Shown here: piece after piece, positions 20,743 through 29,896 of the stretch
Layout of the letters: the number at the start of each line of letters is the position of its first letter
How positions within the stretch are numbered: the stretch's first letter is position 1
Source of the DNA: Gemmatimonadota bacterium
GTDB lineage: Bacteria > Gemmatimonadota > Gemmatimonadetes > Longimicrobiales > Gaopeijiaceae
Assembly: GCA_034521595.1 (NCBI GenBank)
Contig: JAXHMG010000002.1
Span: 64,001-128,000 of the forward strand
DNA: 64,000 nt
Direction of reading: 5' to 3'
Translations under genes and position numbers: made by a program
Notes under the pieces: model-generated
Seen by the model: only the letters and a program-made list of their open reading frames with translations
What the model was told of the DNA's origin: nothing
Databases searched by the model: none

Positions 20743-21333
20743 TCAGCGCCAGCCCTCCAGCACCCCGTAGGAGCGCACGGACAGGCGGCCCGATTCGATC
20801 GGACCGGCGACCCAGACCACCGTCCCGGCCGCACGTCGGAGGTCCCCGGAGACGGCCCGGAGACCGGTCGCCTCACCACTTCCCAACGGCTCCACGCTCC
20901 ACCCGTCCGTTCCCTCGTCACGCAGCACGCCGAGCGTCGCCGGCATGCCGTCCACCTCCACGACCTCGACCTCGGTCACCTCGAGCTCGCCCCCCGGCGT
21001 GAGCCCCGGCCCGCACGCTCTCACGGTCGTGCCCGTCAGGAGCCTCACGTTCCCCGCCATCGTCCCGAGGAGCTCGACCCTCGGGCCGTCCGCCGGATCC
21101 ACCCAGGTCCGCGGGGCGATGTCGACGCCCTCGGAGACGACGACGCCCCGTACGCACTCCCCGGCCTCACGGGCCGCGGTGACCTGCCCATCGGCTCCCT
21201 CGGAGGGGCCGTCCGATCCGGACGACGAAGCGCACCCGGCGGACAGGAGCGCCACGAAGGGAATGGCCGCCGCGCGGCGGCGCCGAGAAAAAGCGAGAGT
21301 CCGTGGTGGGCGAACGCGGAAAGCCTTGCTCAT
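20743..21333 (-). CDS. Hypothetical lipoprotein
   Basis: Lipobox LSAGC; ATG overlaps the stop of the upstream gene. Confidence 0.65.
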   Translation of the reverse strand: MSKAFRVRPPRTLAFSRRRRAAAIPFVALLSAGCASSSGSDGPSEGADGQVTAAREAGECVRGVVVSEGVDIAPRTWVDPADGPRVELLGTMAGNVRLLTGTTVRACGPGLTPGGELEVTEVEVVEVDGMPATLGVLRDEGTDGWSVEPLGSGEATGLRAVSGDLRRAAGTVVWVAGPIESGRLSVRSYGVLEGWR

Positions 21334-23936
21334 TGGATCCTCAACACCCAGAGGACCATCCCTTCCGGGACCGCGCCCTCGTCGGCCGGACTCCGGATCC
21401 GGAGGCTCGTGGGATCGTGGGCATCGGGAGGGGTCCACTCGAGGTAGGCGCTCGACGCGGCCCGGACCTCCACGTCGAGCGTGGGCTCGGCCGCCGTGCT
21501 CGTGTAGGGGCGCAGACGGGCTTCCTCCACGACGCTCTGGAAGACGTTGTGGACGTTCCACGACGGGAGCCAATCGCCCATGCCGGGGCGGTCGTCGGCC
21601 CAGAGGGTGGCGGCGAACTCCACGAGTAGGGATTCGCGGGTCTTACCGGTTACCTCGAGAAGCGCGTCGAGTCCGTTGGCCGTCGGCCGGGTCAGCTCCC
21701 GCATCAGCGCCTCGTCGTCGAGCTTGTCGTCCCCCGTCTGATCCAGCACCCAGCGGAGCAGCATCGACGGCACGCCGTACACCGCGCGTCGGTTCTCGCA
21801 GGGACCGGCGTTGCCCTCGCTCTTCCGGCCGATCCAGGAGCACTGCTCCGGCGCAAACTCCTCGGGTGGTGTATCCCGTCCCTTGAAGCCGAAGTAGAGC
21901 GCCATGTCCACGACCCAGTCGCGGTACCAGCCGGGCTCGGCGTTCTCGGAGTCCGCCCCGTCCCGCCAGTCGGCGGAGTCGAGGTTCATCCGGGGCCCAT
22001 GGTCGAGCACTTCGTAGCCCACGAGCTGCTCGGCCAGGGTCGCGCCACCCTCGAGCTCCCAGGACGTCTTGGGCTTGGGTTCGGGTTCGGGCGTCGTGAA
22101 GAGCGCGGTGAACTGAAGGATGTGCGTCAGCTCGTGCGCGATGAGCGGCGGGTACTGGACGAGCAGGTCCGCCACCTCCACCGTATCCCCGTGGACGCCC
22201 TCGGGATCGGGGGTCCGCCCGTAGAACATCTCCGCCTGGTTGCTGGTGCCGCACTGGTCCTGGCCGACCAGGTCACCGCTGAACACGAAGCCCGCGAAGT
22301 TCTCCTTCTCATTGACCTCCTTCGTGATCAGCACGAGGACGAGATCGTTGTCGTCCACGTCGGCGAACTCGCCGAAGTTGTTTTCCAGCGTCGGCAGCGT
22401 GGTCTGCTCGAGAAGGCCGTCCAGGTTTTGATACTGAGTCCTGGTGAAGCCCGCGGTCGGATTGTCCACGTCTTCGAGGAAGGCCGCGGCGTCGCCCACG
22501 TGACGCACGACGGCCTGGACTTCCGCGCCGGTGTCGCAGCTTTCCGGCACCGTGAAGTCCAGGGTCTCTCCCTCTTCGGGGGGCGCGCGCTGGGGTGCCG
22601 CGGCTCCGCCGGCCGCCGTCGCGAGGCTCGGCGTCCCCGCCCCCAACGACTCCAACCACGCCCGCTCCGCCGCCCGGATGCGGGCTTCACCGCTCCGGTC
22701 CGGACGCGCCTCCGCGAGGCTCGCGAGGGCCGGCGAGCCGCCCGGAGCGGGCGCCCGGCGGACGGACGTCACGGTGGCCCCCGACGTCGTGCCCTCCGGC
22801 GCGCGGAACGACCCCACCGCCTCCGACCCCGTCCCGGAACGAGCAACCGTCGTGGTCGCGCCGTCGTCCTCCGCCACGAGGCGGGACCCGGTCCGTGACG
22901 CGAGACGGGTGGGCGTGAGCGAGCTCGCCACCTCGGAGCTCGAGAGGACGCCCACGAGATACCGCTCGTCGGACGAGCCGGTGTCCAGGTGGAGGCATCC
23001 CTCGGTCGCGTAGCGGCCGTCGCCCACCGCGAGAGCGTGCACCGCCTCCGAGGGCGGCCGGACTTCGGCCGAGACCGAATCGACCATGTCCCGCGCGGCG
23101 ACCCGGAGCCGCCCTTCCCGGGGCGGCCGGCAGTCCGCGTCGGGAACGATCACCCGCAGCTCCACGGACGAGGCCGACGTCACCTCCGCCGCGGTGCCGT
23201 CCAGGGTGACCTCGTTTCCGGCCATCTCCGTGTCGAAGCCCAGTCCGCGGATCGTCGCCGTGTCGCCTTCGATCATCGGCGACGGGCTCACGCTTCCGGC
23301 CACGACCCGGTCGTCGCCCACGAACGCCGCAAGCGCGCCGGCCACCCCGTCCGCCACCACCGAGAGGCTGTCGGCCCCGTCTCCGACGGCCTCGACCAGC
23401 CCCGAGGCCGACACCGTGATCACGGACGTGTCGTTGGACGTCCAGCTCACGGACTCGGTCGGCATGGGGTTGCCGTTCGCATCCACGACCGTCGCGACCA
23501 CGGTGGTCGTGTCCCCGGGGTTCTCGAGCGTCACCGGGTCCGGAAGGAACCGGAGTCGGTCCGCGACCTGCTCGACCGACACGGAGGCGGACGCTCGGGC
23601 CTCGTCGGCCGAAGCCGTCACCGTCGCGCTCCCGTTGCCGATCGAGGTCACCACGCCCGCGCCCGAGACCGAGGCGACGGCCGGGTCCGAGGAGCCCCAG
23701 GTCACGCCCACGCCTTCCATCGGCTCGCCGTTCTGGTCGCGCACGGTAGCGGCAATGGCCGCCGTGTCACCGAGCGCGGAGAAGTCCAGCTCGGACCTCG
23801 AAAGGTCGATCGTGCTCGCGGCAGGCTCTTCGCTCCCGGTCGGGCTGTCCGAGCACGCGGTGATCAACGTGGCCGGCAGGAGCGCGAGCGTGACGATACG
23901 GCCGGTGCGGCACTTCCGATGCAGGTCCATATTCAT
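21330..23936 (-). CDS. Large lipoprotein: Ig-like (Big_2) domains, IPT/TIG, zinc metallopeptidase domain
   Basis: Lipobox ITAC; two WxSSDxxVAxVSxxGxVT-type repeats; IAHELTHILQ followed by WELEGGATLAE (gluzincin-like). Confidence 0.8.
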   Translation of the reverse strand: MNMDLHRKCRTGRIVTLALLPATLITACSDSPTGSEEPAASTIDLSRSELDFSALGDTAAIAATVRDQNGEPMEGVGVTWGSSDPAVASVSGAGVVTSIGNGSATVTASADEARASASVSVEQVADRLRFLPDPVTLENPGDTTTVVATVVDANGNPMPTESVSWTSNDTSVITVSASGLVEAVGDGADSLSVVADGVAGALAAFVGDDRVVAGSVSPSPMIEGDTATIRGLGFDTEMAGNEVTLDGTAAEVTSASSVELRVIVPDADCRPPREGRLRVAARDMVDSVSAEVRPPSEAVHALAVGDGRYATEGCLHLDTGSSDERYLVGVLSSSEVASSLTPTRLASRTGSRLVAEDDGATTTVARSGTGSEAVGSFRAPEGTTSGATVTSVRRAPAPGGSPALASLAEARPDRSGEARIRAAERAWLESLGAGTPSLATAAGGAAAPQRAPPEEGETLDFTVPESCDTGAEVQAVVRHVGDAAAFLEDVDNPTAGFTRTQYQNLDGLLEQTTLPTLENNFGEFADVDDNDLVLVLITKEVNEKENFAGFVFSGDLVGQDQCGTSNQAEMFYGRTPDPEGVHGDTVEVADLLVQYPPLIAHELTHILQFTALFTTPEPEPKPKTSWELEGGATLAEQLVGYEVLDHGPRMNLDSADWRDGADSENAEPGWYRDWVVDMALYFGFKGRDTPPEEFAPEQCSWIGRKSEGNAGPCENRRAVYGVPSMLLRWVLDQTGDDKLDDEALMRELTRPTANGLDALLEVTGKTRESLLVEFAATLWADDRPGMGDWLPSWNVHNVFQSVVEEARLRPYTSTAAEPTLDVEVRAASSAYLEWTPPDAHDPTSLRIRSPADEGAVPEGMVLWVLRIQ

Positions 23937-24018: not shown

Positions 24019-24060
24019 TTGCGCGCGCGGTATGAGTATACCATACTCATATTATGAGTA
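24019..24060 (+). promoter_or_regulatory. Sigma70-type promoter with palindromic operator (TA autoregulation), leaderless start
   Basis: TTGCGC-17-CATACT ending 6 nt before ATG 24054; perfect inverted repeat TATGAGTAT-ACC-ATACTCATA (24031-24051) and a third half-site TATGAGTA (24053-24060). Confidence 0.75.
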
Positions 24061-24476
24061 AGCGCTTGCAGGTCGTCATGGACGACGCGGAGTACGACGA
24101 GATCCAAGACGCGGCCGACGCCGCGCGGCTCACGATATCGGCGTGGGTGCGGCGGTCCTTGCGGGCCCAGCGCGCACGCGCCTCCAACCGACCGGAAGGA
24201 GCCACGGTTCCCGCCGTGGCAGGGCCGGCCCCTTCTCCGGCCCGAGACGGAACCGGACGACCGCCGGACGACGGGCTCGTGCGCGCGGTCATGGAGCGGC
24301 ACGGGATCTCTTCCCCCGCGGAGGCCGTCGACTTCGCGCTCCGGCGTGCGGCCGAGCCGCCGCTGGCGCCGGGAGACCTCCTCGCGCTGCGAGGCACCGG
24401 GTGGTCGGGAGACCTCGAGGCGGTCCGCGCTCACCCGATGCGCGGCACGAAGGGTTCGGCCGGAGCCCGGTCGTGA
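24054..24476 (+). CDS. vapB: Antitoxin: N-terminal RHH domain fused to a VapB-like domain
   Basis: MSKRLQVVMDDAEYDEI..TISAWVRRSL (RHH); DDGLVRAVM..AEAVDFALRR..LLALRGTGWSGDLEAVR (VapB-like); GTGA overlap with PIN gene. Confidence 0.75.
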   Translation: MSKRLQVVMDDAEYDEIQDAADAARLTISAWVRRSLRAQRARASNRPEGATVPAVAGPAPSPARDGTGRPPDDGLVRAVMERHGISSPAEAVDFALRRAAEPPLAPGDLLALRGTGWSGDLEAVRAHPMRGTKGSAGARS

Positions 24477-26182
24477 TCCTCGTCGACACGTCGGCGTGGG
24501 TAGCCTATCTACGGGGAACGGGCTCTGAAGCGGATCACGCCCTCCAGCGACTCCTGTCGGACCGCGCACGGCTGTTCACGACGGACACCGTCATGGTGGA
24601 GCTCCTCGCCGGAGCGGGGGACGAGGAGGCCGCCCGGAGGGTGTCCGGGCTCCTCTTCTCGCTCGAGCGGTGCACGCCCCCAGGGCCGCTGGACCTCGAG
24701 CGAGCGGGGCACCTCTACCGAGCGGAGCGGAAGGGCGACCATGATCCTGTCAGCCTTTCTTCGTGTCTGGTCGCGGCCGTCGCGCTACGGGACGACCTCC
24801 CGGTCCTCGCGGAGGACGACGACTTCGCGACCCTCGCCCGCACCTCCGGCCTCCGGCTGTGGGAAACGGACAGGAGCGCCCCGCGCCAGGCGCCGACCGC
24901 TCCCGCGGCCCGCGCGCCCGACGTAGCGCCCGCTCGGGCACGGTCCACCTCCGCGGAAGCGGTCGTCCTCGTCGTCGAAGACGAGCCGTCGGCAGCACGG
25001 CTGCTCGACGATGCGCTGGCCGATCCGGGGCGCCGGCTGGTGCATGCGGGGTCGGGCCGGGAAGCGCGCGCCCGCATCGCCGAGCGCCCGCCCGGGGCGA
25101 TCGTCCTCGACCTGATCCTCCCCGACGAAGACGGCCGAAACCTTCTGGCCGATCTCCGTCGAGATCCGAGCACGAAGGACGCCGGGGTCGTGATCGTGAC
25201 GGGGAAGGCCGGCCCTCGGACCCGGGAGGAGTGCTTCGCGCTGGGGGCGGACGCGTTCTTCGACAAACCCTTCGACGAACCGAAGCTTTCCCGCGCGGTC
25301 GAGGGCATCCTGGTCGAGGGACGCGCTTCGACGCCCGACCCCGACCCCCTCCTCGCCCCGCTCACCCTCTCGGAAGTGCAGAAGCGGTTGAAGGCCGACC
25401 GGGAAGGCACCCCCGGCCAACGCACCTGGACCGTCGGCCTCCTGGAGATCACGACCGGCGCGGGCGAAGCAGGCTCCGCGACCGAGGACGGCGACGGCCG
25501 GCTCCTCCCCAGCCTGCTCCGAACCGTCATCCAGGCGCTGCTCGCGCGCCTCGAGGAAGGCGAGCTGCTCGCCCGTTGGGGCGTCAACCAACTGGTCGTG
25601 GTGAGCGCCCTGCGGTCCGAAGCCGAGCTCCTCACGCTCGTCCGTGACATGTCGACTCTCCAGGCCGCCGGCGACCACGTGTCGGGCGGGGTGCGGCGTG
25701 TAGGCCACGACGAGGACCTGCTCGATGCCGTGGCCACCATGGCCGCACGGATCGACGACATAGGGACGGACCCGGCCCCGTCCATCGTGCCACTCGACGA
25801 AAAGCCAACCGGCCGGCCACGTGCCGCGCTCGTCGAAGACGACCCCATCACGGCGGGACTGGTGCGTCACCGCCTCGAGCGGAGCGGCTTTCTCGTCGAC
25901 CACTCCACGGACGGGGAGGTAGCACTCGACGCGATCCTGAAGGAGCCGCCGAGCGTGGCCATCCTCGACATCCAGCTTCCCTCCATGGACGGCTTCGAGA
26001 TCCTGCGCCGGATGAAGGAGCACGACACCACGCGCGACGTGCCCGTGCTCATGTTGACCTCGTTGGGTCGCGAGCAGCACGTCCGCCGCGGCTTCGAGCT
26101 GGGCGCGGACGACTACGTCACCAAGCCGTTTTCGCCCAGCGAGCTCCTGACCCGGGTACTCCGGCTGGTGCGCCGGAAATGA
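24473..26182 (+). CDS. Fusion: VapC-like PIN domain - REC - degenerate GGDEF - REC
   Basis: GTG start ILVDTSAWVAYLRG..VELLAG..CLVAAVA..EDDDF; REC1 (VEDE, LDLILP, VTG, DKPF); LLARWGVNQL; REC2 (VEDD, LDIQLPSMDG, LTS, TKPF); single open frame. Confidence 0.85.
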   Translation: MILVDTSAWVAYLRGTGSEADHALQRLLSDRARLFTTDTVMVELLAGAGDEEAARRVSGLLFSLERCTPPGPLDLERAGHLYRAERKGDHDPVSLSSCLVAAVALRDDLPVLAEDDDFATLARTSGLRLWETDRSAPRQAPTAPAARAPDVAPARARSTSAEAVVLVVEDEPSAARLLDDALADPGRRLVHAGSGREARARIAERPPGAIVLDLILPDEDGRNLLADLRRDPSTKDAGVVIVTGKAGPRTREECFALGADAFFDKPFDEPKLSRAVEGILVEGRASTPDPDPLLAPLTLSEVQKRLKADREGTPGQRTWTVGLLEITTGAGEAGSATEDGDGRLLPSLLRTVIQALLARLEEGELLARWGVNQLVVVSALRSEAELLTLVRDMSTLQAAGDHVSGGVRRVGHDEDLLDAVATMAARIDDIGTDPAPSIVPLDEKPTGRPRAALVEDDPITAGLVRHRLERSGFLVDHSTDGEVALDAILKEPPSVAILDIQLPSMDGFEILRRMKEHDTTRDVPVLMLTSLGREQHVRRGFELGADDYVTKPFSPSELLTRVLRLVRRK

Positions 26183-27252
26183 GCCTCCCGACCGACACCA
26201 CCCTGCGGCTCGCCATGGCCGCCGTCGTCCTGCTGTCCGTGTTCACCCTGATCTTCGTCGCCTACGCGTTCTACCTGCACCTGAAGGGGCAGCGACTCGA
26301 GCGACGGCGCAGCCGCCTCGAGGCCGCCTGGAAGAAGCGGCTGCTCGACGCCGCCACGGGAGAGGCGACGCCCGCTCCCGATCCCGACCGGCCGAACGCC
26401 GAAGAGCGAGAGGTTCCGCCCGAAGATCGGGTCCTCTTCCTGGAGCTCGTGACGGATTACGCAAGGGCCCTTCACGGTCCGGAGCGCCGGAACCTGGAAC
26501 AGGTGGCCGCACCCTATCTCGACGCGCTGGACCCGCTGCTCGACGACGCCCACCCCTATCGGCGGGCCCACGGACTCGACATCCTGAGCGAGCTGAGCCT
26601 CGAGGAGGCGCGCGAGCGGATCGTCCGCGGGTTGAGCGACGAATCCGGCCTGGTCGCGATGGTCGCGGCCCGTGCGTTGGCACGGAACGGGGACCCCGAG
26701 CACGTCCCGCTCCTCCTCGCGAGGCTGGAGGCCTTCGAGAACTGGAGCGCCAACTACCTGGCGAGCCTGCTCTCGAGCTTCGGCTCCGCCGCCGTGCCCT
26801 ATTTGCGCGCGCTGGCCATGGACACGTCCGCCACCGGACGCTTCCGTTGCGTCGCGCTCCAGGCCCTGCGGGAGCTGAACGACCTGGAGTCGGTGGAGTC
26901 GGCCGTTCGCCTGCTCCCGGACGAGAACGACGCCGAGGTCCAGTCCGACCTCATCCGCCTGATCGGCCGCCTCGGTCGCCCCGAGCACCTCGACGTGATC
27001 CGGGAACACGCGTCGTCTCCCGTCCCTCACGTCCGAGCCGCGAGCCTCCGGGCCGTGAGCGAGCTGAGCGATCGCCGTACCTCCGACGTCGAGCTGGTCT
27101 CGCGGGGGCTCGACGATCCCTCACCGTGGGTGGCCCTCCAGTCCGCCCACGGGCTGATGAAGCTCGGACGCGCGCACGAGCTCTCCGCCCTGGCCACGTC
27201 CGAGAGTCCGCGCGCGGACCTGGCCGCCGAGGTGCTGGAAGCCCACCGATGA
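26179..27252 (+). CDS. Membrane-anchored HEAT-repeat protein
   Basis: N-terminal TM helix; repeats LSDESGLVAMVAARAL, LDDPSPWVALQSAHGL; ATGA-coupled. Confidence 0.85.
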   Translation: MSLPTDTTLRLAMAAVVLLSVFTLIFVAYAFYLHLKGQRLERRRSRLEAAWKKRLLDAATGEATPAPDPDRPNAEEREVPPEDRVLFLELVTDYARALHGPERRNLEQVAAPYLDALDPLLDDAHPYRRAHGLDILSELSLEEARERIVRGLSDESGLVAMVAARALARNGDPEHVPLLLARLEAFENWSANYLASLLSSFGSAAVPYLRALAMDTSATGRFRCVALQALRELNDLESVESAVRLLPDENDAEVQSDLIRLIGRLGRPEHLDVIREHASSPVPHVRAASLRAVSELSDRRTSDVELVSRGLDDPSPWVALQSAHGLMKLGRAHELSALATSESPRADLAAEVLEAHR

Positions 27253-28739
27253 TCGACACCCTTTTCGATTCGCCGATCGGTCCCTTCATCGGACCCGCGC
27301 TGTGGGGCGCCAACGCGCTCGTCTTCACCTACTTCGTCGTCCTGAACGCGTCGTACCTGACGCTGAGCGTGATCGCGTTCCGTGCGGTCAAGCGGTACGC
27401 CGAGCGCCTGCGGTCCCTGGACGTCAAGGAGACCATCGCGCACGCGGGCGCCCCACCCATCACGCTCATCGCTCCCGCATACAACGAGGAAGCGACCGTC
27501 GTCGAGTCGGTCCGCTCCCTCCTGTCGCTGAACTATCCCGAGTACGAGGTGATCGTCGTCAACGACGGCTCGGGTGACGCCACGGTGGAGCGGATGATCG
27601 AGGCGTTCGACCTCCGCCCGTCCCCGAAGATGTCGACCTTCGACGTGGATACGGCCGAAGTGCGGCGGACCTACCGGAGCCGACGCCACCCCCACCTCTG
27701 GTTGGTCGACAAGGAGAACGGGGGAAAGGCGGACGCCCTCAACGCCGGGCTTTGTTACTGCAGGACCCCGCTCTTCTGCGCGATGGACGCGGACACCCTG
27801 CTCGAGCGCGACGCGCTCATCCGAGTCGTGCGACCCTTCCTCGAGGACGCGCGAACCGTGGCCGCGGGAGGGATCATCCGCATCGCGAACGGCTGCACCA
27901 TCGAAGGGGGCGCCGTGACCGACATCCGGCTCCCGGACAGCCTGGTCGCCCGCCTCCAGGTACTCGAGTATCTGCGCGCCTTCCTCGTCGGGCGCATGGG
28001 CTGGGATACCGTGAAGGGCAACCTCATCATCTCGGGGGCGTTCGGCATCTTCCGGCGTTCCACCGTCATCGCGGCGGGAGGGTTCTCGACGAAGACGGTG
28101 GGCGAGGACATGGAGCTGGTCGTACGGCTCCATCGCTACTGCCTCGATCACGAAATCCCCTACCGTGTCAGCTTCGTACCCGACCCGGTGGCCTGGACGG
28201 AGGCCCCCGAGAGCCTGCGCATCCTGGGGCGGCAACGCGACCGCTGGCAGCGCGGCCTGAGCGAATCGTTGACGATGCACCGAAAGATGCTCCTGCGCAC
28301 GAAGTACGGGAGAATCGGGATGGCGGTCATGCCGCACTTCTACTTTCTGGAGATGTGGGGTCCTCTGGTCGAGGTGATGGGCTACGTGGTCTTCCTGCTC
28401 ACGGTTCTGGCAGGGTGGGCATCGCCGGCGTACGTGTCGGCGTTCCTCATGGTGACCATCGTGCTGGGGATCGCGCTTTCCGTAGCGGCGCTCGCCCTCG
28501 AGGAGCTCGCCTTCCGCCGTTACCCCCGTCCGACCGACCTCCTGCGCCTCTTCGTGCTCGCCGTGACCGAGAACGTCGGGTACCGGCAGATCACCGCGTT
28601 CTGGCGGCTGCGCGGACTCGTGCGATTCCTGCGCAAGACGAAGGGTTGGGGGGTGATGCCCCGCGCGGGCTTCGGCGGAGGGAAGACTCGGGCGGCCGCG
28701 ACCGAGACGGCCGGATCCGAAGCCTCCGAGGAAGGGTAG
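27249..28739 (+). CDS. GT2 processive glycosyltransferase (PgaC/IcaA/CesA-like)
   Basis: PAYNE, VNDGS, GGKADALN, DAD, GEDME, QRDRW; N- and C-terminal TM helices. Confidence 0.93.
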   Translation: MIDTLFDSPIGPFIGPALWGANALVFTYFVVLNASYLTLSVIAFRAVKRYAERLRSLDVKETIAHAGAPPITLIAPAYNEEATVVESVRSLLSLNYPEYEVIVVNDGSGDATVERMIEAFDLRPSPKMSTFDVDTAEVRRTYRSRRHPHLWLVDKENGGKADALNAGLCYCRTPLFCAMDADTLLERDALIRVVRPFLEDARTVAAGGIIRIANGCTIEGGAVTDIRLPDSLVARLQVLEYLRAFLVGRMGWDTVKGNLIISGAFGIFRRSTVIAAGGFSTKTVGEDMELVVRLHRYCLDHEIPYRVSFVPDPVAWTEAPESLRILGRQRDRWQRGLSESLTMHRKMLLRTKYGRIGMAVMPHFYFLEMWGPLVEVMGYVVFLLTVLAGWASPAYVSAFLMVTIVLGIALSVAALALEELAFRRYPRPTDLLRLFVLAVTENVGYRQITAFWRLRGLVRFLRKTKGWGVMPRAGFGGGKTRAAATETAGSEASEEG

Positions 28740-28745
28740 CGGCTC

Positions 28746-29600
28746 GTGCCCCACCGCCTGCCCGTATTCGGGGCGCTCGCATGCGCGCTGGCCTGCGTCG
28801 GCATCGGGAGCGGCGATCCGGCGGTCGCTCTCGACGTGGCGAGGGACACCGCGCCGCGCATGGAGATCGCGTTTCTGGACGTGGGACAGGGCGACGCGAC
28901 GCTGATCCGCTCTCCCGACGGTCGGGCCGCGCTGGTCGATGCCGGACCGGGCGACCCCACCGCCCAGCTCGAAGCGCTCGGCGTCGATCGGCTCGAGCTC
29001 GTGGTCGCGAGCCATCCCCACGCCGACCACATCGGGGGCATGGAGGCCGTCCTGGATGCCTTCCCGGTGGGGGCGTACATGGACAACGCTCAACCGCACA
29101 CCACGGCCACATACCTGAGCCTGATGCGCCGCTTGAGCGCGCGGGACGATCTAACGTACCTGGAGGCGGTGCCCCGTACCCTGACGCTCGGAGACGTCAC
29201 CCTCGAGGTGCTCCCCTTGCCGCCCGGGGACGACCTGGCCCACAATGACCGCTCGATCGGGATCGTCGTTCGCTTCGGAGACTTCTCGGCCTTGCTCAGC
29301 GGAGACTCGGAGCGTCGTGAGTTGTCGTACTTCCTGGAACAGGGTGCCGTGCCCGACATATCGGTACTCAAGGCGCCCCATCACGGGAGCCGCAACGGCT
29401 TCACGACGAGCTTTCTCCGCGCGGCTCGGCCGGAGGTCGTCGTGATCCCGCTTGGCGACAACGGGTACGGCCATCCCCACGAAGCGGCCGTCCGGGCGTA
29501 CCGTGCGATGGCGCGCGAGGTCTACCGCACCGACCGGAACGGCCGGATCACCATTCTCGGACACGAGGACGGAAGCTACCGGGTGAGGACGGAGCGATGA
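28746..29600 (+). CDS. ComEC/Rec2-like MBL-fold hydrolase, exported
   Basis: FLDVGQGDA, SHPHADHIGG, NDRS, GD, KAPHHGS, NGYGHPH, RTDRNG. Confidence 0.9.
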   Translation: MPHRLPVFGALACALACVGIGSGDPAVALDVARDTAPRMEIAFLDVGQGDATLIRSPDGRAALVDAGPGDPTAQLEALGVDRLELVVASHPHADHIGGMEAVLDAFPVGAYMDNAQPHTTATYLSLMRRLSARDDLTYLEAVPRTLTLGDVTLEVLPLPPGDDLAHNDRSIGIVVRFGDFSALLSGDSERRELSYFLEQGAVPDISVLKAPHHGSRNGFTTSFLRAARPEVVVIPLGDNGYGHPHEAAVRAYRAMAREVYRTDRNGRITILGHEDGSYRVRTER

Positions 29601-29896
29601 CCGGAGACACGGGACCGGACGAGCACGAGCGCCTGTGGGTCGTCGACCGCATCGAAGGTGAGCGGGTCGTGCTGATCGAGGACGATGGCGGGCGCACCTC
29701 CGAGGTGGGCCGCTCCGGCATCGGGGCGGAGGTCAAGGAAGGGACCGTCCTTCGGGTGCCGACGTCGTCCTCCGGGCGGATGGACTGGACGCGCGCGCGG
29801 CCCGACGAAGACGAGCGCGCGGCCCGGGAGGAGGAAGCGCGGGACATCCTCGACGAGCTCCGCCCCCGCGATCCGGGAGGCGACGTCACCCTCTAA
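29597..29896 (+). CDS. DUF3006 domain protein
   Basis: VVDRIEGERVVL..VKEGTVL; typical neighbour of ComEC-like MBL genes. Confidence 0.75.
   Translation: MTGDTGPDEHERLWVVDRIEGERVVLIEDDGGRTSEVGRSGIGAEVKEGTVLRVPTSSSGRMDWTRARPDEDERAAREEEARDILDELRPRDPGGDVTL

Follow-up and report, generated by a model that had tools for sequence, protein, structure and literature searches.

An apparently domesticated toxin-antitoxin pair at the head of a receiver/HEAT/glycosyltransferase operon in an uncultured genus of Longimicrobiales

Gene order and control region

The DNA analysed here (the window) is a stretch of 64,000 nucleotides (nt) from a Gemmatimonadota bacterium of the order Longimicrobiales (assembly GCA_034521595.1, contig JAXHMG010000002.1, positions 64,001 to 128,000). 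The system in question is a set of four co-oriented genes within it, which encode an antitoxin, a VapC-like PIN domain fused to a receiver-GGDEF-receiver protein (PIN-REC-GGDEF-REC, the GGDEF domain being degenerate), a membrane-anchored HEAT-repeat protein and a processive family 2 glycosyltransferase (GT2) (Table 1). The PIN domain of the fusion looks disarmed as a nuclease with its antitoxin-binding features retained, and it is probable that this is a domesticated toxin-antitoxin (TA) pair, which controls transcription from the head of an operon for an exopolysaccharide synthase under receiver/HEAT regulation.

Consecutive open reading frames (ORFs) overlap by 4 nt (GTGA at 24473, ATGA at 26179 and ATGA at 27249), as the initial annotation of this DNA had reported, and the D,D,D,QxxRW signature that it described in the GT2 is likewise present (NDGSGD at 105, DADT at 180, GED at 285 and QRDRW at 329). 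Against the PgaC/IcaA model TIGR03937 (NCBIfam) the GT2 scores 144 bits, which is below the cut-off of 422. The HEAT protein is the probable adaptor of the synthase. Pfam recognised a PIN domain (E 2.4e-11) and two Response_reg stretches in the fusion, and in the antitoxin a NikA-like ribbon-helix-helix (RHH) domain (E 6.7e-6, just under the cut-off) and a weak VapB match. Two features of VapBC systems are seen here, namely an antitoxin gene lying upstream of and overlapping the PIN gene, and an antitoxin that joins a DNA-binding domain to a VapB tail. The GC content of the region (0.69-0.72) is the same as that of the window.

The putative -10 box ends 6 nt before the antitoxin ATG, so the mRNA is probably leaderless. 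The sequence TTGCGC-17-CATACT matches the consensus at 7/12 positions and a generic promoter scan called no plus-strand promoter at the operon start; the promoter is proposed because it is conserved at equal spacing in relatives, fused and free alike, commonly in the form TTGACT/CATACT or TATACT. The initial annotation had placed the genes behind a single promoter with a palindromic operator; the operator stands, and the promoter, being under the scan threshold, is drawn from the relatives. The operator is a perfect 9-bp inverted repeat (arms 24031-24039/24043-24051) whose core occurs once exactly in the 3.49-Mb genome, with three one-mismatch sites elsewhere. It has 0 mismatches in 6/6 fused loci, which carry six different spacers, and among 21 free TA loci it is perfect in 8 and has two mismatches or fewer in 19. 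A palindromic operator within the promoter is a further VapBC feature, present here as a predicted binding site. A third half-site at 24053-24060 was considered as part of the operator and rejected, as it overlaps start codons and forms no conserved palindrome in relatives.

Table 1. Positions of the operon, its control region, its protein domains and associated genes. Coordinates are those of the window, except for the exporter; aa, amino acids; TM, transmembrane segment; MBL, metallo-beta-lactamase; TPR, tetratricopeptide repeat.
Feature	Position	Strand	Remarks
Putative sigma70-type promoter	24019-24047	+	-35 TTGCGC 24019-24024, 17-nt spacer, -10 CATACT 24042-24047
Palindromic operator (predicted)	24031-24051	.	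Core TGAGTA-N5-TACTCA (24033-24049), overlaps -10 box
Antitoxin ORF	24054-24476	+	140 aa
N-terminal RHH of antitoxin	aa 1-43		NikA-like RHH
VapB11-like domain of antitoxin	aa 71-125		W117, R125 (= VapB11 W54, R62); variable linker before it
PIN-REC-GGDEF-REC fusion ORF	24473-26182	+	569 aa
VapC11-like PIN domain, predicted pseudo-nuclease	24473-24862	+	aa 1-130
Pro/Ala-rich flexible linker	24863-24958	+	Variable length, always in frame in aligned fusions; pLDDT <50
REC1	24959-25321	+	aa 163-283; D213, T243, K265 intact in window copy
Degenerate GGDEF-fold domain	25355-25762	+	Motif RWGVNQL
REC2	25817-26182	+	aa 449-569; canonical receiver
Membrane-anchored HEAT-repeat ORF	26179-27252	+	357 aa; one N-terminal TM, aa 11-29; Pfam HEAT_2
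Processive GT2 synthase ORF	27249-28739	+	496 aa; GT2 family matches; D,D,D,QxxRW
ComEC-like MBL (28746-29600) and DUF3006 (29597-29896) genes	28746-29896	+	Directly downstream of GT2 gene
1524-aa exporter	G000:C3:2091191-2095765 (L160:9192-13766)	-	N-terminal TPR, middle domain, TPRs, C-terminal barrel-like region

The PIN domain, its antitoxin and the signalling half of the fusion

The best solved relative of the PIN domain is VapC11 (6A7V chain A, E 3.1e-19), in which R94, D98 and D116 correspond to V93, S97 and D115 of the window protein. D5, E43 and D115 are kept, the third Asp is replaced by S97 and the tRNA-binding Arg by V93. None of the 21 fused PINs has the third Asp (VapC11 D98-equivalent), carrying S, V, A or I instead, and two of them keep the R94-equivalent; in free PINs the former is kept in 15/16 sequences from the family and 62/65 from GTDB, and the latter in 16/16 and 57/65, respectively (9/25 family loci were dropped from the free set, having no called start or being at a contig end or truncated). 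The intact D,E,D,D catalytic set of VapBC toxins is thus missing, and so is the stand-alone PIN toxin of ~130 aa, the fusion being 569 aa long compared with 120-166 aa in free relatives. With the R94E change, VapC11 is reported neither to inhibit growth nor to bind tRNA (PMC6265470); D99 is reported to be essential in VapC1 (PMC4229260), and VapC1 D99N, for which the latter source cites Cline et al., is non-toxic yet forms a promoter-binding complex with VapB1. One free family VapC (locus L075, genome G311) has Ala in place of the third Asp, possibly through an independent inactivation.

The residues expected to contact the antitoxin are largely present. R62 of VapB11 is reported to form salt bridges with VapC11 D5, E44 and D116, and W54 to be buried in the toxin (PMC6265470); of the 21 fused PINs, 21, 21 and 17, respectively, retain these acids. 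The C-terminal domain of the antitoxin has VapB11 as its best PDB match (6A7V chain K, E 3.6e-9), and W117 and R125 are kept in 6/6 antitoxins paired with fused PINs. VapB11 E50 pairs with R25 of the toxin, and across free pairs this antitoxin position covaries in charge with toxin position 25: among the 58 GTDB pairs (of 65) with a readable motif, 27/27 non-Arg antitoxins face R/K25 and none of the 31 Arg antitoxins does. In the fused clade the antitoxin position is Arg in 6/6 and the PIN has D21 in 21/21, and an equivalent charge swap is seen in 4/16 free family pairs. D21 is one of four new invariant residues of the fused-clade PIN, together with S63, R66 and D107, and the domain is full length in 20/20 listed fusion proteins while the length of the linker varies freely.

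For the closest pair of genomes (G002 and G003) the ratio of nonsynonymous to synonymous substitution rates (dN/dS) was 0.12 for the RHH, 0.14 for the VapB domain and 0.16 for the PIN, compared with 0.77 for the linker, and in the rest of the operon 0.13 for REC1, 0.17 for the degenerate GGDEF domain, 0.04 for REC2, 0.18 for HEAT and 0.07 for GT2. The medians over all pairs were higher (PIN 0.32, linker 0.63), with dS near saturation. Judged by these ratios, the PIN domain and the antitoxin are under purifying selection.

The second proposal of the initial annotation had been a PIN that is still an active RNase and is controlled by phosphorylation, its toxicity being turned on by the receivers so that growth arrest is coupled to glycan synthesis. 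Such an enzyme would suit the invariant D5 and E43, a D115 that most sequences keep, an antitoxin retained as though it still had a toxin to neutralise, and a REC1 that is intact in most members. We nevertheless regard it as very improbable, as the third Asp is lost in 21/21 and the substrate-binding Arg in 19/21, equivalent changes are reported to abolish toxicity in VapC1 (PMC4229260) and VapC11 (PMC6265470), and the acids that remain are those bound by the antitoxin Arg.

In an AlphaFold model of the fusion (mean pLDDT 75.6, pTM 0.43) there are four folded domains and a disordered linker between PIN and REC1, and the best Foldseek matches of the model are PleD, WspR and DgcR; in a wide fold search with the fusion the matches were filled by REC2. 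The middle domain of the window copy has no Pfam GGDEF match, compared with unfused relatives, which match PF00990. Its A-site reads RWGVNQL rather than RxGGEEF, with RWG(V/I/A)xx in 20/20 fused proteins, so the GG(D/E)EF feature is gone, and the window copy has no RxxD I-site, with LEEGELLA where the intact relatives P0032 and P0212 read RPDD and RQTD. This domain is likely a scaffold. Across fusions REC1 keeps D213 in 18/19, K265 in 15/19 and D170 in 15/19 and is decayed in 4-5/19; a subclade (P0021, P0022, P0024 and P0025) has a REC1 without the acidic-pocket Asp and the conserved Lys and keeps PIN and REC2. No part of the fusion is better conserved than REC2, with E455, D456, D499, T529 and K551 each present in 19/19, and has the acidic pocket, phospho-Asp, Thr/Ser and Lys of a receiver in all 19, as does REC1 in the window copy. 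A complex prediction for REC2 with the soluble HEAT domain scored 0.43 against 0.01 for the best control, with at least 97% contact agreement between runs and a partner pLDDT of at least 84, on a scale where the mark was reached by 116/157 solved complexes and 2/215 mismatches and where scores at or below 0.60 comprised 18/157 of the former and both mismatches. The prediction lends weak support to REC2 as a candidate effector that docks on the HEAT protein.

Distribution and origin of the fusion

Residues 1-330 of the fusion were used as a query (8000 candidates scored), and of the best 120 among 130 matches 20 have PIN+REC, namely the window protein and 19 others with 50-77% identity and 99-100% query coverage, one of the latter being a 370-aa truncated form. 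The best 150 matches of an exhaustive search of 50% representatives included three proteins with PIN+REC and added one fragment, P0127. The PIN was found in 5/6 other genomes of the genus, and four other genomes have an intact fusion frame. At E 1e-30, PIN-REC1 was present in 4/401 genomes of the order, all of this genus. In a GTDB-wide scan, only five of the 80 loci kept out of 243 span PIN and REC1 in full and are titled Gemmatimonadota or Longimicrobiales, and the 65 other PINs that could be read from the start end after the 120-166 aa given above. No PIN-REC cluster was among those listed from the ESM Atlas, and a metagenome scan by alignment patterns from REC2 listed generic receivers. 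Among genomes, the fusion was found only in one uncultured Longimicrobiales genus. In one of its genomes, G006, the PIN (L024:2857-3185) has a deletion which apparently lies between short repeats, with the REC part looking intact, and which is either real or an assembly slip. The window's own genome (G000) has 12 PIN matches and 7 GGDEF matches, and the fusion is the longest open frame among the PIN matches.

Contigs from two runs of one sample, possibly the source sample, bridge the PIN-REC1 junction without differences, and a contig from a run of another study bridges it with ~89% identity. A mis-join at this point, which the initial annotation had wished to see checked, is excluded by these contigs. 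It had also named an orphan fusion free of purifying selection as a case that would overturn it; the arrangement is seen in the 19 other proteins, the copies are divergent and the contrast in dN/dS between PIN and linker is as given above. The carriers found are all metagenome-derived, which would suit an assembly chimera or one-off accident. This explanation is refuted by the independent and divergent copies, with at least 19 further proteins of full coverage and varied source, and is opposed also by the intact frames in other genomes, the bridging contigs and the selection.

In the PIN tree (21 fused and 16 free sequences) the fused PINs form one side of a branch with support 100/100. They do so again in a quick tree of the REC-GGDEF-REC part (SH-aLRT 100; computed without L021, L022, L024 and L025, which are duplicates of P-proteins, and without the short L034 and L206), where the sister is a G034-type protein bearing a degenerate Hpt domain. 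Together the trees indicate that the fusion arose once. Sister genera hold both parents unfused, one as a free VapBC11-like pair and the other as an operon with the order exporter, degenerate Hpt-REC-GGDEF-REC regulator, HEAT, GT2; in the nearest unfused genomes (G034 and G106) the exporter is of TPR-barrel type and the regulator starts with a helical Hpt-like domain, and in the deeper relatives P0032 and P0212 the Hpt is a true one and the GGEEF motif is intact. GT2 matches occur in 71/301 family genomes, and neither antitoxin nor PIN stands beside the GT2 in the 24 non-genus family loci examined (8 + 16). The two-domain antitoxin has matches in 95/301 family genomes, a count that includes weak RHH-only matches, typically with a free PIN after it. 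The free TA pairs found across the family (L052-L076, L035-L038) have this unusual antitoxin, with an extra RHH before the VapB11-like domain, and apparently a leaderless promoter with the same operator.

We infer from these arrangements that a single rearrangement would have split the operon of the genus ancestor, fusing the regulator in frame behind a VapBC11-like pair, with vapC taking the place of the degenerate Hpt-like domain, placing the downstream genes behind the TA promoter and relocating the exporter gene. The suggestion of the initial annotation that a TA module had been co-opted is supported by the single origin, the unfused parents in sister genera and the purifying selection on PIN and antitoxin.

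Elsewhere in the genome there is an ortholog of the exporter, which has 50% identity over 1479 columns and supplies the outer-membrane TPR/beta-barrel exporter expected of such a system. It is present in 6/7 genus genomes and missing only from G005 (98% complete), which is also without antitoxin, PIN and GT2. For the C-terminal barrel-like region, the ortholog in G034 has a weak BCSC_C match. The middle domain of the G000 protein has glycoside-hydrolase-like matches in the ESM Atlas with scores <0.9, to be taken as a lead only, and a PDB sequence search with the middle part gave 0 matches; the protein has the appearance of a hydrolase fused to an exporter for the polymer of the GT2. Pfam YaiO matched in 0/7 genus genomes, the exporter here being of the TPR-barrel type. 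In G025 (L031:9865-12357) a GT2 and a YaiO barrel share one 830-aa open frame, which either joins a synthase of the inner membrane to a barrel of the outer membrane or is an artefact of read-through.

Given this separation of the operon from its exporter and original upstream promoter, the rearrangement could also be read as promoter capture, in which the genes gained the promoter and the translation start of the TA pair, autorepression is the work of the antitoxin by itself and the PIN is a passenger kept only for folding and frame. The broken PIN of G006, where the rest is intact, and a PIN dN/dS above that of REC2 or GT2 are also in keeping with this. It is rather unlikely, however, as the toxin-binding domain of the antitoxin, including W117 and R125, is conserved like the RHH (0.14 vs 0.12), and as a passenger would hardly keep its antitoxin-contact acids, gain four invariant residues and stay full length beside a varying linker.

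Downstream of the GT2, the MBL and DUF3006 genes lie outside the ancestral glycan cluster and may share the operon transcript; an MBL gene follows the GT2 in G001, G002 and G004, and the G003 copy is broken. Upstream, a divergent gene (21330-23936, minus strand) starts 117 nt from the antitoxin gene and encodes an 868-aa Ig-like (Big/TIG) protein that is probably exported; it has an equal position in G002, G003 and G004 and might share the regulatory region.

Proposed function and relation to known systems

The explanation that we consider the best supported, and probably correct in outline, is that the dead PIN makes the receiver adaptor of the synthase a co-repressor and is a docking tag on it, and that antitoxin turnover or the ratio of fusion to antitoxin switches the glycan operon. 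The PIN would no longer cut RNA and would still bind the antitoxin; antitoxin and fusion protein would together occupy the operator across the -10 box and silence all of the operon, in the manner of VapBC complexes. Repression would be lifted when stress depletes the labile antitoxin or when the fusion protein is in excess, and the regulator, HEAT protein and GT2 would come on together, after which phosphorylated REC2 could dock on the HEAT adaptor and activate the synthase. As the fusion would be signalling protein and co-repressor in one, the operon's own signalling protein would also repress the operon. VapBC complexes are reported to repress their own promoter and excess toxin to de-repress it (PMC3378870). 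The first proposal of the initial annotation, that polysaccharide synthesis is under antitoxin autorepression, holds in so far as it fits the kept operator and the RHH. PADLOC returned only generic partial matches to REC, HEAT and MBL and no model match suggesting a defence system, and an anti-phage role is not supported.

The pair could instead act mainly after translation, with the antitoxin on the PIN tag clustering, sequestering or destabilising the adaptor and so gating the synthase, and with co-repression secondary. A 4:4 hetero-octamer, as reported for VapB11-VapC11 (PMC6265470), would tether four adaptors; the four genes are all translationally coupled, and the REC2-HEAT prediction adds weak support. 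The long flexible linker makes direct allostery less likely, however, and the operator is perfectly kept, so that we hold this to be unlikely as the principal role; it is compatible with co-repression by the fusion and places the emphasis elsewhere.

Several observations weigh against co-repression by a disarmed PIN. Arg25 is retained in three of the 21 fused PINs, in two cases opposite an antitoxin with R113, which leaves the charge swap imperfect; three of the four catalytic acids remain, which makes residual nuclease activity possible; and the third Asp is also gone in 3/65 free GTDB PINs and 1/16 free family PINs. All fused PINs descend from one event, and 21/21 is one loss plus persistence rather than a set of independent tests. 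G006 (75% complete) has a ~50-nt frameshifting deletion in the PIN with antitoxin, operator and downstream genes that look intact, and the PIN would be dispensable there if the deletion is real. REC1 is decayed in one subclade, the REC2-HEAT score lies in a range where passes are often wrong, and the right arm of the operator, given its overlap with the -10 box, owes part of its conservation to constraint on the promoter.

A more speculative extension of co-repression, which we put forward as a possibility of lesser likelihood, is that the fusion is a phosphorylation-tuned TA rheostat, in which receiver phosphorylation or the docking of REC2 on HEAT-GT2 sets the amount of pseudo-toxin available to the antitoxin. 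If true, a two-component signal would set operator occupancy through conditional cooperativity and an active synthase would de-repress its own operon, giving a two-component transcription circuit with a borrowed antitoxin as its DNA-binding output.

The nearest known system is VapBC11 (6A7V; PMC6265470), with which the pair shares the best PDB match of PIN and antitoxin domain, the 4-nt gene overlap, an operator over the promoter and the interface residues W54, R62 and Leu41/46/47/49. It differs in the extra N-terminal RHH of the antitoxin, which is common to the free family pairs, in the lack of D98 and R94 equivalents, in the fusion of the toxin to REC-GGDEF-REC and in an operon that carries HEAT and GT2. 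The conditional cooperativity of enteric vapBC (PMC3378870) is alike in that the toxin is co-repressor and de-repressor, and VapC1 D99N (via PMC4229260) in that a third-Asp mutant is reported to be non-toxic and to bind antitoxin and promoter. These are two-gene loci or laboratory mutants, whereas here a natural change has become fixed and the proposed co-repressor has receiver domains. By its predicted features the system works like a VapBC autoregulatory module and fails as an active VapBC on the stand-alone toxin and the catalytic set.

The remainder of the operon has the response regulator (RR), TM-HEAT protein and processive GT2 that mark receiver/HEAT/GT2 glycan clusters. Mesorhizobium, Erythrobacter and Emticicia (on plasmids) have RR/HEAT/GT2/barrel clusters that include phosphorelay genes, in which the RR stands beside HEAT and the GT2 is 39-47% identical; the gene at the HEAT position is annotated as hypothetical in Emticicia, and the HEAT gene described here is homologous by profile to that of the Mesorhizobium RR/YaiO/HEAT/GT2 cluster (probability 96.5). 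Their annotated regions have no TA genes, and this genus differs also by its unlinked exporter. The Pga/Ica, Bcs and xagABC(D) systems share a processive GT2 with D,D,D,QxxRW, the GT2 here being far below the PgaC/IcaA cut-off, and unlike that comparison set the window system has no PilZ domain or RxxD I-site that we could see. Xanthomonas xagABCD may resemble the receiver/HEAT/GT2 cluster. The xag genes of Xanthomonas are described as a biofilm glycosyltransferase cluster (PMC3609779).

In the full-text literature searched, which holds few subscription papers, no account of a PIN-receiver fusion or of a VapBC heading a glycosyltransferase operon was found; the one paper in which PIN and receiver domains and VapC came up together proved to be on another matter. 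PhoH2 and PIN-TRAM are cases of a PIN within a larger protein, and the control of biofilm genes by MqsA and the FicT-derived effectors are cases of TA parts used beyond self-regulation. These keep catalysis or act in trans, and to our knowledge none is a dead toxin on a two-component adaptor in its own cargo operon. The system is real and conserved, and it is apparently an undescribed variant of TA domestication.

The purpose of chromosomal TA systems, and whether they can be converted to ordinary regulators, has long been argued. This locus looks like a natural case of such domestication, in which both parents are visible in sister genera, one fusion has occurred, the catalytic and substrate residues are lost and the interface and operator are retained. 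With four small genes, TA domestication becomes directly testable and, although known only from one uncultured genus, the operon offers a handle on a widespread and apparently unstudied receiver/HEAT/GT2 polysaccharide system.

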